From a virus: a DNA stretch of 64,000 bases. Numbering within the stretch: position 1 is the first letter of the stretch; each line of letters begins with the position of its first letter. The DNA lies in the IMG/VR virus record IMGVR_UViG_3300030098_004420, positions 1 through 64,000 of that record; one strand, 5' to 3'. Both the position numbers and the translations under genes were made by a program. Positions 20,189-23,485 of the stretch are shown in pieces. Under the pieces are notes generated by a model, which made no database searches, had not been told where the DNA came from, and saw nothing but the letters and a program-made list of their open reading frames with translations.

Positions 20189-20410
20189 ATGACAATAGAG
20201 ACAATATTAGTTTTAGCGTTACCGATAGCATTTTTATTATTTTGTGCTGGAGCATTGGGTGGTTGGATTGCTAGAGATTACATGATGAACTATCAGGAGA
20301 TACCAAGACCACATCCTGAGATGTTTGATATAAATGGGAATTTAGTTCCCGACGAAATTGTCGCATTTAGATTTGAAAATTATGACGAAGACTACGACCA
20401 AGAAGAGTAA
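20189..20410 (+). CDS. Small membrane protein
   Basis: Strong SD (AGGAGGT), N-terminal hydrophobic helix, HPEMFD motif. Confidence 0.8.
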   Translation: MTIETILVLALPIAFLLFCAGALGGWIARDYMMNYQEIPRPHPEMFDINGNLVPDEIVAFRFENYDEDYDQEE

Positions 20411-20999
20411 AAGTTTTTCAGTAAAAGCAAATACTCCTACAAAAAAATCTGCTCCTAAACCAATGGAGCAGTTACCTTTAAATCCTCTTGCATTTGAAGT
20501 TTTAGATTTAGTTTCTAGACAAAGATCTAAAGCTAAGAAAATAGAAGCATTGAGAAAATATGAAGATATGTCTTTAAAGGTTCTCTTCATATGGAATTTT
20601 GATGAAAGTGTAATTAGTAATCTTCCTCCAGGTGAGGTTCCTTATCATGGATATGATGCTCAGAATACTTATAGTGGAACTCTTTCGACTAAAATTTCAA
20701 ATGAAGTTCGTAAAATGCATGAGACTGGATCATTTTCATTAGGATCTAGTGATCAGCAAGGACATACTACTATTCGTAGAGAATCAAAACATTTTTATCA
20801 TTTCTGTAAAGGTGGTAATGATGGTATGAATGCTCTTCGTCGTGAGACTATGTTTATTAACATCCTTGAAGGAGTTCACCCATTAGAGGCAGAAATACTG
20901 ACCTTATGTAAGGATAAAAGACTTGGAGAAGTTTATAAAGTAACTAAAGAAGTAGTTGCAGAAGCGTATCCTGATATTAGATGGGGTAATAGATCATGA
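20382..20999 (+). CDS. Conserved T4-like hypothetical protein
   Basis: LFIWNFDESV...LPPGEVPY...RRETMFINILEGVHPLEAEIL; ATG at 20382 preferred over 20358. Confidence 0.8.
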   Translation: MTKTTTKKSKSFSVKANTPTKKSAPKPMEQLPLNPLAFEVLDLVSRQRSKAKKIEALRKYEDMSLKVLFIWNFDESVISNLPPGEVPYHGYDAQNTYSGTLSTKISNEVRKMHETGSFSLGSSDQQGHTTIRRESKHFYHFCKGGNDGMNALRRETMFINILEGVHPLEAEILTLCKDKRLGEVYKVTKEVVAEAYPDIRWGNRS

Positions 21000-21334
21000 C
21001 AACAGCCACAGAAGAAAAGAAAGTAACTATCTGGACAAAAGAAGAGAAAGATAATTTTAAATCCAAGTATGGTTCTGAAATACTTGTAGAGAATGGTTCA
21101 TATGAAGATGTAACCATTACACAAGCACCTAGTGATGCTTATATTATAAAGTATATGCATGAAGATAAGATTTGTTTTGATTTAACTAGAGGAACAAAGA
21201 TAAAGTTGTTTGATATGTATTGGGATAAGTTTAAAGGTGGAATAAAATCTATTGAGTATGGTAAGGGTAGTATCAAACCAAACTTGTGGGGATATCAGTC
21301 ACCTAAACCACCAAAGAAAAAAAGGAAAGCGTAA
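20996..21334 (+). CDS. Hypothetical cyanophage protein
   Basis: 112-aa ORF with ATGA overlap. Confidence 0.8.
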   Translation: MTTATEEKKVTIWTKEEKDNFKSKYGSEILVENGSYEDVTITQAPSDAYIIKYMHEDKICFDLTRGTKIKLFDMYWDKFKGGIKSIEYGKGSIKPNLWGYQSPKPPKKKRKA

Positions 21335-21405
21335 ACCAAATTCGACTTTTAATTCCAAAATATCGGGGAAAAAAATCGGGCAAAATTTTTGCTCTGTAGG
21401 GTTTT

Positions 21406-21421
21406 TGTATCACATGTTACA
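21406..21421. promoter_or_regulatory. NtcA-binding box
   Basis: TGTATCACATGTTACA matches TGTA-N8-TACA and ends 7 nt before a -35 element. Confidence 0.7.
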
Positions 21422-21428
21422 GAACTAC

Positions 21429-21457
21429 TTGACTATATAGTATAACTGTGTTAGTAT
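21429..21457 (+). promoter_or_regulatory. sigma70-like promoter
   Basis: TTGACT (21429-34), 17-nt spacer, TGT-TAGTAT (-10 at 21452-57); predicted start about 21463-64, just before the riboswitch. Confidence 0.75.
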
Positions 21458-21465
21458 TAACACAA

Positions 21466-21510
21466 CGTTCATCTCCCGTATAGGAGACGCAAGTAAGCCG
21501 ACTCGGAACG
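21466..21510 (+). ncRNA. Glutamine-II (Downstream-peptide)-like riboswitch, copy 1
   Basis: P1 CGTTC/GAACG, P2 TCTCC-CGTATA-GGAGA, then CGCAA...GCCGAC; upstream of a YRG peptide. Confidence 0.8.
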
Positions 21511-21513
21511 GAT

Positions 21514-21683
21514 CGTTCATCTCATGGACATACTACTCGCTACTCTTTTAACTTGTAAAGAGGCAGAAGGTATTATCTCTAAGGTATCATCTTCTGATCC
21601 TGTGAGAACCGAATTAATTGAGGTTCTTAAAATGAGTACTGAGAAAGGATGTGAATGGGACGCAAAAGCCGACTGAAGGAACG
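21514..21683 (+). ncRNA. Glutamine-II-like riboswitch, copy 2, with an ORF in the P2 loop
   Basis: CGTTCA-TCTCAT ... ATGGGA-CGCAAAAGCCGACTGAAG-GAACG; same core as copy 1 but P2 loop about 130 nt. Confidence 0.72.
21524..21676 (+). CDS. 50-aa peptide nested in riboswitch copy 2 (absent from ORF track)
   Basis: MDILLATLLTCKEAEGIISKVSSSDPVRTELIEVLKMSTEKGCEWDAKAD*, translated by hand. Confidence 0.65.
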   Translation: MDILLATLLTCKEAEGIISKVSSSDPVRTELIEVLKMSTEKGCEWDAKAD

Positions 21684-21719
21684 GGGATTAAACCACCCTA
21701 CTACTTTGGAGTAAAGCCA

Positions 21720-21863
21720 ATGGCAAAAGTCACTTACCGTGGACACGAGTACGATACCGATGAGTATCGTAAGGCTCTCATCGCAGAGCATAATCAACAG
21801 AGAAACTACGATTTAATGTATCGTGGAATCAAAGTGAAGAGCAAGGCAGTTCCTTGTTCTTAG
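21720..21863 (+). CDS. DUF4278-like YRG-motif small protein
   Basis: MAKVTYRGHEY...LMYRGIKV with two YRG motifs; SD GGAG at 21708-11. Confidence 0.8.
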   Translation: MAKVTYRGHEYDTDEYRKALIAEHNQQRNYDLMYRGIKVKSKAVPCS

Positions 21864-21884
21864 GTCCTAAACGCTGATTGAAAG

Positions 21885-21913
21885 GAGCACCTATTGACAG
21901 GTGCTCTTTTTTT
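21885..21913 (+). terminator. Rho-independent terminator overlapping a sigma70 promoter
   Basis: GAGCACCT-ATTGAC-AGGTGCTC-T7; TTGACA (21894-99) + 17 nt + TAAAAT (21917-22). Confidence 0.85.
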
Positions 21914-21941
21914 ATGTAAAATAGTTAAAAGTCTAATTGTT

Positions 21942-22109
21942 ATGGAACGGGACAAATTAAAGTTGATAGTCCGTAATATGGAACTATTAGTTGATGCACT
22001 TAAAGCAGAAGTATATTCTGATGTTGAGTCATACAAGAATTCAAAGGCATTTGGACCACCAACTGATTATGACGAACTCTACGATGATGACGATGGGTAT
22101 CCAGACTAG
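21942..22109 (+). CDS. Hypothetical cyanophage protein
   Basis: MERDKLKLIVRNMELLVDALKAEVYSD; ATG at 21942. Confidence 0.75.
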   Translation: MERDKLKLIVRNMELLVDALKAEVYSDVESYKNSKAFGPPTDYDELYDDDDGYPD

Positions 22110-22269
22110 CAGAGCAAAAAGAATGCTCAAAATGCTTGAATCTTTATTATCATATGATCATCTCTATTCTGATGATAAGTTAAGAGAGATGAAAGCACAA
22201 AGAAATGTATTAAAAGAGGAAATTGCTGAAATGGAAGCAAAAAGATCAAAAGGATTTGGTAAGAAATGA
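22093..22269 (+). CDS. Hypothetical protein (start uncertain)
   Basis: MGIQTSRAKRMLKMLE...SKGFGKK; overlaps the thyX start. Confidence 0.6.
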   Translation: MGIQTSRAKRMLKMLESLLSYDHLYSDDKLREMKAQRNVLKEEIAEMEAKRSKGFGKK

Positions 22270-22898
22270 CTGTAAAACTTGTTAGTGTTACTCCTGATGC
22301 GGAGCAACTTATGGCATATATTGCCAGAGTATCTAATCCATCTAATCAGGACAATGAAAAGTATGCAGGACTATTGAAGTATTGCATCAAGCATAATCAT
22401 TGGAGCGTCTTTGAGCAGTCTACTATGACTCTTGAGATAGAGACTACTCGTGCTATTGCTGCACAGATATTAAGACATAGAAGTTTCACATTCCAAGAGT
22501 TCTCACAGAGATATGCAAGTAGCAACGATTTAGGTGATATTGATTTACCAGAACTTCGTAGGCAAGATACAAAGAATCGTCAGAATTCTATTGATGATTT
22601 AGATTCTGAAATGGTTGATAAACTTAATCGTCAGATGATTACTCTGTTCAGTTCTGCTAAGAGTCTTTATACTCAAATGTTAGATGCTGGAGTTGCGAAA
22701 GAATGTGCTAGAATGGTGTTACCACTCTGTACTCCTACCAGAATCTATATGACTGGTTCATGTCGTTCTTGGATACATTATATCAATTTACGTTCAGCAC
22801 ATGGAACACAGAAAGAGCATATGGTGATAGCAGAAGCATGTAGAGAGGTGTTTATTGAGCAGTTCCCTTCAGTATCAGAAGCCTTAGAATGGAAGTAA
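22266..22898 (+). CDS. thyX: Flavin-dependent thymidylate synthase
   Basis: HWSVFEQ, QILRHRSFTFQEFSQRY (RHRx7S), ARMVLP. Confidence 0.97.
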   Translation: MTVKLVSVTPDAEQLMAYIARVSNPSNQDNEKYAGLLKYCIKHNHWSVFEQSTMTLEIETTRAIAAQILRHRSFTFQEFSQRYASSNDLGDIDLPELRRQDTKNRQNSIDDLDSEMVDKLNRQMITLFSSAKSLYTQMLDAGVAKECARMVLPLCTPTRIYMTGSCRSWIHYINLRSAHGTQKEHMVIAEACREVFIEQFPSVSEALEWK

Positions 22899-23485
22899 AA
22901 CAACTTCCTAATGATGGTTATCTTCGTAGTTCTTTACCAAAAGAACTATTTGATTCTTTATTAACTGAAGGATTAGAATGTCATAATAATGAAAATAGGA
23001 TTACAGGATTGGTGAGACCTAATGGTACTCAAACTTGCCCTCATTATGATATGTCAGATAAAAATTCTGATTGTTTAAAGGATTTTATTTTTCCTTATAT
23101 CGATCAATATAAGGAAAATTTTACTTATGTTCAAAATCTTAAATGTTTGACTAGTAATAGTCCTTTTATTTTTGGAAAACCGTGGTATAATATTCAAAGA
23201 CCTAATGATTATTTACCGATTCATACTCATGATGGGGTTTTATCATACACTATTTGGTTAAAACTTCCTCCTTTATCTGAATTTATCTTTTATTATTCTG
23301 GTATAGTAAATCAAAAGGACTATACAATGAGACTTACACCTCAAGATGAAGGGGACTTTATTTTTTTCCCTGCTACTTTGGCTCATGGGGTACATCCTTT
23401 TCCATCAAATGATCCTAATGAAATTAGAATAAGTATTTCTGGGAACATTTCTCTGCAAGGAGTTGATGATTATCTATCTAAATAA
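22889..23485 (+). CDS. 2OG-Fe(II) oxygenase-like protein
   Basis: WYNIQ...PIHTHDGVLS...EGDFIFFPATLAHGVHPF...RISISGN. Confidence 0.8.
   Translation: MEVKQLPNDGYLRSSLPKELFDSLLTEGLECHNNENRITGLVRPNGTQTCPHYDMSDKNSDCLKDFIFPYIDQYKENFTYVQNLKCLTSNSPFIFGKPWYNIQRPNDYLPIHTHDGVLSYTIWLKLPPLSEFIFYYSGIVNQKDYTMRLTPQDEGDFIFFPATLAHGVHPFPSNDPNEIRISISGNISLQGVDDYLSK

Follow-up and report, generated by a model that had tools for sequence, protein, structure and literature searches.

Can a virus of cyanobacteria couple its own small genes to the nitrogen state of the infected cell through a single short transcription unit? The question is raised by a cassette of ∼500 bp in the window analyzed here, a stretch of 64,000 nt (positions 1 to 64,000 of IMG/VR virus record IMGVR_UViG_3300030098_004420, which is 78.9 kb long), in which an NtcA-type box, a sigma-70 promoter, two glutamine aptamers, an open reading frame (ORF) nested in the second aptamer, a double-YRG ORF and a terminator are found together. 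The nearest named relatives are T4-like cyanomyoviruses (Kyanoviridae), namely Prochlorococcus phage P-SSM2 and single-cell "marine virus" assemblies, at ∼78 to 80% DNA identity in this region. We read the cassette, with a probability of about 0.6, as a self-contained regulatory unit of T4-like cyanophages, a viral copy of the cyanobacterial gifB/IF17-like unit with two-signal control, through which the virus probably adjusts its small-protein production to the nitrogen status of its host. Directly supported here are the nature of each part and its conservation, the covariation of the stems and the coding signature of both ORFs. The features are as follows, numbered by position in the window.

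21406–21421, no strand: NtcA-type palindromic box TGTA-N8-TACA, 7 nt before the −35 hexamer, centered ∼−50.5 from the predicted start
21429–21457, + strand: sigma-70-type early promoter TTGACT-17-TAGTAT with TG upstream of the −10 hexamer, predicted start ∼21463–21465
21447–21464, no strand: inverted repeat TGTGTTA/TAACACA around the −10 hexamer, arms covarying in relatives
21464–21514, + strand: aptamer 1, a compact glnA-type glutamine aptamer (RF01739, 35.3 bits; gathering score 35), with helix P1 at 21466–70 paired to 21506–10 and the P2 hairpin at 21472–87
21514–21525, + strand: aptamer 2, 5′ half, with P1 strand CGUUC and P2 strand UCUCAU, the latter including the first two bases of the nested AUG
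21524–21676, + strand: nested 50-aa ORF in the P2 loop of aptamer 2, with a hydrophobic N terminus, Cys11 and Cys43, ending WDAKAD
21655–21683, + strand: aptamer 2, 3′ half, with P2 strand AUGGGA, core CGCAAAAGCCGACUGAAG and P1 strand GAACG
21684–21698, + strand: short GGG...CCC helix abutting P1, a candidate expression-platform helix, present in relatives with varying sequence
21708–21711, + strand: Shine–Dalgarno (SD) sequence GGAG, 8 nt before the AUG at 21720
21720–21863, + strand: 47-aa DUF4278-like, IF17-like ORF with motifs VTYRG and MYRG
21880–21913, + strand: intrinsic terminator, a 13-bp hairpin (21880–21911) followed by a U run, −18.3 kcal/mol, z −4.75

An earlier reading of this DNA, referred to below as the original prediction, had named the box, a sigma-70 promoter, a 47-aa double-YRG protein and a terminator. 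Each of these is present, the promoter being near consensus and the 47-aa peptide matching PF14105 at E 4.6e-5, and the box is centered near −50 rather than −41.5, as had been proposed. The analogy that it drew to host gifB/IF17-like units was likewise borne out, with corresponding parts (NtcA, glutamine riboswitch and DUF4278; Klahn 2018, PMC6212724).

With blastn, matches to the region came from 104 phage records, of which 42 are named Synechococcus, 32 Cyanophage, 22 Prochlorococcus and 8 Marine virus. An exact pattern scan found the tandem junction GGAACG-N-ATCGTTCA in at least 120 IMG/VR contigs, and a search with the nested peptide added 43 further IMG/VR loci. Counts of relatives below are counts of sequences among the listed junction matches (at least 120) and the nested-peptide loci, and labels such as L002 and L134 denote loci in this set. 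Upstream of the cassette, the genes are unrelated among relatives. Conservation of the cassette across many cyanomyoviruses argues for function.

Two glutamine aptamers

In the whole window, RF01739 was the sole Rfam family to score above its gathering score, the match to aptamer 1 being borderline; the P-SSM2 orthologue of aptamer 1 scored 35.1 bits on the same model. The Downstream-peptide assignment made in the original prediction was not upheld: RF01704 (Glutamine-II/Downstream-peptide) reached 26.6 bits at 21463–21516, below its cut-off of 33, and one relative, L094, reached 33.2 bits on this model. On covariance models, aptamer 1 passed RF01739, RF01704 stayed below cut-off and aptamer 2 was unmatched. 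On their sequence, the aptamers are classed as glnA type (RF01739), not Downstream-peptide/Glutamine-II. Across compact units, P2 pairs 0 to 3 were formed in 103 to 104 of 104 sequences with two to five pair types each, indicating covariation, which was assessed on P2. The core ACGCAAGUA...GGAACG was invariant in alignments of relatives.

The claim of two glutamine elements held in that both are present; the second is not compact but split around a protein-coding ORF. Its CGUUCA (21514–21519) starts ∼3 bases after aptamer 1, and its two halves lie 129 nt apart. The minimum-energy fold of 21513–21686 formed both P1 and P2, and an RNAalifold consensus of 41 related units kept P1, P2 and mini-P3, with nothing conserved within the ORF. 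In close relatives with a like promoter, an identical core and a tetraloop-type P2, the compact version of unit 2 scored 33.9 to 40.3 bits on RF01739. Pairing in the closing stem was followed through 72 distinct ORF-holding units, in which pairs 0 to 5, next to the core, were formed in 72, 72, 71, 66, 67 and 51 sequences, respectively. Pair 3 was CG in 27, UA in 17, AU in 14 and UG in 7, exceeding all 500 shuffles (maximum 46 paired). Variants of the long-range P2 included UCUUAUG/CAUAAGA, UCCAAU/AUUGGA, UCCGAUG/CAUUGGA, UCCUAU/AUAGGA, UCUAUG/CAUAGA and UCCUCA/UGAGGA.

Two relatives carry frameshifted nested ORFs (L134, 1490–1663; L165, 1490–1657) that run through an intact core and end ...TQKPTKGTD/E; in L134, the 3′ strand of P2 has GAG in place of GGG and still pairs with UCUC. 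Because these frameshifts read the intact core differently, and because the stops of the nested families differ, the core is conserved as RNA and not as peptide.

The distance from CGTTCA to the next core is bimodal, with a hairpin of <40 nt in 165 units and an insert of 120 to 240 nt in ∼110. Architectures were counted in the junction sample, which was picked without regard to ORFs. Among the junction matches listed, 34 arrays were compact–compact, 31 compact–long, 16 long–compact and 6 long–long, with 11 single long and 6 single compact units, a few of the single units probably being chance matches. One or both aptamers held a protein-coding insert of 137 to 224 nt in ∼60% of the sampled phage arrays, again among the matches listed. 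The first aptamer of other cyanophages also holds a nested ORF (L002 1155–1365, L009, L149 and others), and six arrays have nested ORFs in both aptamers.

Nested ORFs and the DUF4278-like peptide

The AUG of the nested ORF overlaps the 5′ strand of P2, and its UGA lies in the core between mini-P3 and the 3′ strand of P1. ORFs of the window type are intact in 43 IMG/VR loci at 52 to 90% identity. More generally, every complete locus has an intact nested ORF, indels preserve the frame, and codons vary least at the second position and most at the third. The median pairwise ratio of nonsynonymous to synonymous substitution (dN/dS) was 0.49 in family A (70 sequences; <1 in 97% of pairs), 0.22 in family B (12 sequences), 0.28 in family C (11) and 0.59 in family D (3), with values <1 in 97 to 100% of pairs across families. 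By these sequence measures, the nested ORFs are judged to be under purifying selection. Inserts of 137 to 224 nt hold an ORF of 49 to 69 aa in all but one case, and the families differ in where they stop relative to the core.

Family A: stop at +16 from the core, ending DAKAD
Family B: stop at +9 from the core, ending IGRK; 67 to 69 aa; HW..C...EYLIDY..TKV..C motif
Family C: stop just before the core; 67 to 69 aa; signal-peptide-like MTKALLLLAWVPLLS start; DIVKNDDVV motif
Family D: stop just before the core; 61 to 62 aa

In every family, the start codon falls within the covarying P2 stem, 9 to 13 nt downstream of the C of CGTTCA, and all share a hydrophobic N terminus and two cysteines ∼31 to 40 residues apart; the start of family C looks like a classical signal peptide. 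Profile–profile comparison of families A, B and C returned probabilities of 1 to 12%, so that homology among them is unsupported. The peptides belong to PHROGs with function not assigned (504 for the family A group, 6471 and 13397), family D matching phrog_504 weakly. Nested ORFs have already been called as genes in metagenomes, and in GenBank the ORF adjoining the DUF4278 gene is labeled "predicted protein" in P-SSM2 (GU071092) and "hypothetical protein" in P-TIM40. An AlphaFold model of family A is a two-helix hairpin (pLDDT 73), for which no structural match was found in the Protein Data Bank and only unnamed viral clusters in the ESM Atlas.

The 47-aa peptide encoded downstream matches phrog_5049 (E 1e-17) and covers only positions 26 to 56 of the DUF4278 profile. 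Many of its homologues (62–81% identity) carry PF14105, P-TIM40 gp197 is annotated as DUF4278, and the peptide is treated here, by sequence similarity, as a divergent member of that family. A double-YRG ORF comes next in 123 of 137 arrays, 30 to 37 nt after GGAACG and with an SD sequence. The (L)TYRG motif of peptides behind these aptamers was described in the supplement of Weinberg 2010 (PMC2864571). Two classes of expression platform occur among the arrays. In one, the P1-abutting helix pairs CUCUUUA with UAAGGAG and hides the SD sequence, which fits a proposal (quoted by Klahn 2018) that glutamine melts a short P1-attached helix. The terminator hairpin behind the 47-aa ORF was found by folding, a simple terminator scan having missed it. 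The −35 of the next promoter, TTGACA (21894), lies in the loop of this hairpin, and TAAAAT follows 17 nt later, ending at 21922 (11/12 match); 21880–21922 is a composite terminator/promoter that precedes a 55-aa acidic ORF (21942–22109).

Since aptamer 2 encloses an ORF, the unit would make two different small proteins, probably controlled differently. Closed by long-range P1 and P2 around the 50-aa two-cysteine ORF, it would bury the nested start in these helices, with the stop in the core, so that translating the nested ORF and folding the aptamer should exclude each other. A two-output toggle on one mRNA might result. At low glutamine, P1/P2 closure would fail, the nested peptide would be translated, and ribosomes in the core would keep the switch unfolded and DUF4278 off; with glutamine, the aptamer would close over the nested start codon, turning the nested peptide off and DUF4278 on. 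At least three families with no detectable sequence relationship (A, B and C) occupy the nested position in phage aptamers. That such a toggle, used by at least three unrelated-looking families, represents a general and previously undescribed embedding of genes in aptamers is put forward tentatively, with the odds against it.

The same arrangement might instead consist of two overlapping single switches, both turned on by glutamine, with aptamer 1 controlling the nested ORF and aptamer 2 the DUF4278 ORF only. The nested AUG does lie 13 nt after P1 of aptamer 1, where other arrays place the regulated start region, and L039 has an ORF of this type behind a compact aptamer, preceded by an AGGAGG SD of its own. 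However, 22 arrays (long–compact and long–long) have the ORF-holding aptamer first, with none upstream, and an AUG 9 to 13 nt after CGTTCA inside a covarying P2 in every family points to control by the enclosing aptamer; separate switches seem unlikely. L039, L061/L090 and L086 carry a two-cysteine ORF after the second CGTTCA where the 3′ core is unmatched by the pattern or the ORF runs through (92 aa in L061/L090), and these variants may be decayed or alternative arrangements.

Promoter, NtcA-type box and the sign of control

A lone match to the box means little, because GTA-N8-TAC occurs 36 times in the window versus 17.8 expected; support comes from its position. In 113 distinct related promoters (cassette promoters of other phage contigs with a sigma-70 pattern), GTA-N8-TAC was found 21 to 23 nt before the first base of the −35 hexamer in 64, at exactly 22 nt in 61, and the full TGTA...TACA in 50, with box consensus TTGTATCAnAnnTTACAAA. 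This phasing is kept despite differing upstream genes, indicating that the box belongs to the cassette. The promoter pattern TTGnnn-N16–18-TAnnnT is kept in 117 of 133 relatives, with a spacer of 17 nt in 101. Presence of the box is independent of −35 quality (48/83 promoters with TTGAC versus 16/30 with other hexamers). Many relatives also carry, immediately 5′ of the box, a short GC hairpin with a T run (e.g., GCCGA-A6-TCGGC then T7) and a conserved CTCTGTAGGGTTTTT; in the window, at 21340–21400, the arms of this hairpin are no longer complementary.

At class II NtcA-activated promoters, the site is centered at ∼−41.5, replaces the −35 hexamer and lies ∼22 nt before a TAN3T −10; here, the box ends 7 nt before an intact TTGACT. 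At gifA/gifB-type NtcA-repressed promoters, the site lies near or over the −10 hexamer or start, and here the box is upstream of the −35. Given a near-consensus promoter and a site that occupies the region usual for an UP element or alpha-CTD contact rather than −41.5, NtcA with 2-oxoglutarate (2OG; the nitrogen-poor state) would, at slightly better than even odds, dampen transcription rather than activate it, by analogy with host gifB. Dampening would render the two inputs coherent, as at that host gene.

Activation by NtcA from a class-I-type site is the other possibility, and a rather doubtful one. The RNA would then be made under nitrogen stress, maybe caused by the infection, and glutamine would gate its translation, so that cells would make the DUF4278 peptide only when starvation gives way to a nitrogen upshift, the two opposing signals acting as an AND gate. 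Sullivan et al. 2010 (PMC3037559) proposed that NtcA sites of cyanomyoviruses promote phage genes in infection-induced nitrogen stress. In addition, the box is clear of the −35, −10 and start, where known repressing sites lie, and strict phasing with the −35 hexamer is typical of activator–polymerase contacts. In contrast, a promoter near consensus with an extended −10 needs no activator, the presence of the box does not track −35 quality, and the homologous host units are NtcA-repressed.

Under the preferred reading, in which NtcA dampens, a strong host-type sigma-70 early promoter would start the RNA a few bases before aptamer 1. The NtcA-type site, in fixed phase at ∼−50, would precede this promoter, and NtcA with 2OG would lower transcription from it. 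Glutamine binding to the tandem glnA-type aptamers would open translation of the 47-aa DUF4278 peptide, by analogy with the Synechocystis and Prochlorococcus switches, and the peptide would be made when nitrogen is plentiful. In this scheme, NtcA binding and its sign, the response to glutamine, the logic of the ON state and what each peptide targets are inferred.

The inverted repeat around the −10 hexamer has a mean minimum free energy of −6.0 versus −1.1 in shuffles, with 92% of sequences at or below −3 kcal/mol. Its arms vary between phages (L003 to L165), as TGTGTTA/TAACACA, GGTC/GACC, AGAGG/CCTCT and GGTATG/CATACC. Its pairs, 491 Watson–Crick and 21 G-U, do not tell one strand from the other; a start at the sigma-70 position would leave the repeat untranscribed. 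A T4-late-like CTAWATA start upstream of the repeat is a further candidate. Candidate roles are the 5′ stem-loop of a second transcript, a DNA-level element or a recombination site like those of PeSL cassettes (early promoter plus stem-loop).

Several points weigh against the cassette being a gifB-like unit with two-signal control. The box is missing in 43% of related promoters and degenerate in P-SSM2, and its position at ∼−50 matches neither the known activator (−41.5) nor the known repressor (−10/start) position of NtcA; both this position and the 5′ end of the RNA are predictions. Aptamer 2 had no Rfam match in 21300–22000 even at E values up to 10, a miss attributed to the 129-nt insert and not counted against the aptamer. 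P1 was fixed by the search pattern, which required CGTTCA and GGAACG. In the platform class of the window, the abutting helix excludes the SD sequence, which is not clearly sequestered there. The 47-aa peptide scored 24.1 bits on PF14105 (E 4.6e-5), just under the gathering score of 25.3, and, judged by length, would lack the C-terminal part of IF17 needed for binding to glutamine synthetase (GS). Finally, the loci are related phages, and the counts are not of independent events.

The cassette might alternatively be mainly a mobile promoter/ORFan module of a hyperplastic region, PeSL-like, whose aptamers and box are host sequence, inherited with little regulatory role. It does stand behind many unrelated upstream genes and is bounded by a composite terminator/promoter, and shuffling in T4-type phages is known to occur at composites of stem-loop and early promoter. 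Yet the cores of the aptamers hardly vary, in contrast to diverging flanks and peptides; the stems show covariation, the phasing of the box is exact, and a change in the overlapping reading frame leaves the RNA core intact. Invariant cores, covarying stems and exact phasing imply ongoing selection on both RNA and box, and a mainly mobile module is accordingly very improbable. A regulatory unit with two-signal control remains our preferred reading.

Setting of the cassette and comparison with known systems

Contigs from four marine RNA libraries cover 21479–21757 at a word-depth of hundreds to thousands versus 0 to 20 in the flanks; being assembled and summed over many strains, they show presence in RNA libraries, not start sites or abundance. 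One metatranscriptome contig of 306 nt spans 21486–21765, from aptamer 1 through the nested ORF and into the DUF4278 ORF, and some RNA contigs skip 136 to 186 nt, corresponding to relatives with a compact unit 2. No metatranscriptome contig matched here reaches past 21881, which is a weak negative.

The neighboring genes span 20358–20996 and 22266–23485. A DUF6433 protein (132 bits) is encoded two genes upstream of the cassette. Downstream lie a thymidylate synthase-like ORF (by synteny with td of P-SSM2) and then a 198-aa ORF with an HxD...H pattern, which resembles a 2OG-Fe(II) oxygenase; the cassette of P-SSM2 begins right where a gene for an enzyme of this kind ends. A manA RNA (RF01745, 176 bits) lies on the minus strand of L067 at 1697–1889, ∼5 kb from the glutamine cassette of that contig. 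In 596 Gb of genome contigs, the 14-base tandem-junction pattern was found in unrelated bacteria only, as chance matches that are uninformative on hosts. The nested and window peptides were negative in a 401-genome sample in which DUF4278 itself was found in 0/401, so that the sample is not usefully cyanobacterial and these negatives carry no weight.

Marine cyanomyoviruses are among the most abundant viruses of the ocean. With the cassette in 104 phage records and at least 120 viral contigs, riboswitch control would be common in this group. The cassette would offer a system of ∼500 bp for how a virus reads the two nitrogen signals classical in cyanobacteria, 2OG (via NtcA) and glutamine (via RNA), and a handle on the role of the uncharacterized DUF4278 peptides. 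We know of no description of an aptamer whose loop encodes a protein and whose closing stem contains the start codon; such nested genes, if confirmed, would link translation to ligand sensing in a way not seen before.

The closest known system is that of the host. Synechocystis gifB (IF17) has an NtcA-regulated promoter and a type 1 (glnA) glutamine riboswitch through which glutamine turns translation on, thus combining NtcA repression with a glutamine ON switch, the repressing NtcA sites lying near or over the −10 or start (Klahn 2018, PMC6212724). The phage cassette shares with the gifB unit an NtcA-type site, a glnA-type 5′ UTR aptamer and a DUF4278-containing product. It differs in having two aptamers, one of them enclosing an ORF, in being virus-encoded, in the placement of its box at ∼−50 upstream of an intact −35 and in a 47-aa product without the C-terminal part of IF17. 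Short IF17-like proteins without the C-terminal residues crucial for GS binding have been described, as has an NtcA site at the IF17-like gene of Prochlorococcus MED4 (Klahn 2018, PMC6212724). The latter site overlaps the start site, unlike the phage box. The cassette is also reminiscent of Downstream-peptide/Glutamine-II RNAs, yfr6 (Weinberg 2010, PMC2864571; Klahn 2018), in host group, short YRG peptides, CGUUCA...GGAACG core and link to nitrogen, whereas aptamer 1 is under the cut-off of RF01704 and over that of RF01739.

Glutamine riboswitches of phages and NtcA sites of cyanophages are already in the literature (PMC5473149, PMC9964418, PMC3037559). A survey from 2017 counted no more than two glutamine aptamers across cyanophage genomes and judged riboswitch use by phages to be rare (PMC5473149). 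GTA-N8-TAC motifs in intergenic regions of T4-like cyanophages were linked to 2OG sensing by Sullivan 2010 (PMC3037559), which mentions no riboswitches; the box described here instead goes with a single cassette, its distance from the sigma-70 promoter being fixed and non-canonical. In an incompletely accessible literature, no description was found of a fixed −50 box at such a cassette or of aptamer-nested ORFs. PeSL cassettes of T4-type phages (Arbiol 2010, PMC2839356; Comeau 2014, PMC4122927) likewise combine a strong sigma-70-like early promoter with a stem-loop, and their elements flank small ORFan genes in variable regions. The composite at 21880–21922 is of the PeSL kind, whereas the stem at the promoter of the cassette itself lies around the −10 hexamer rather than beside the promoter.

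Finally, as in the tandem glnA RNAs (Weinberg 2010), the phage aptamers are arranged head to tail and joined by ∼3 nt (GGAACG-GAU-CGUUCA), and 34 of the arrays sampled from phages consist simply of two compact units. Unlike those RNAs, many phage arrays carry inserts of 137 to 224 nt that code for small proteins. The host circuit itself is known; what stands out here is its wide occurrence in phages, the non-canonical phased NtcA-type box and, above all, the genes nested in the aptamers.

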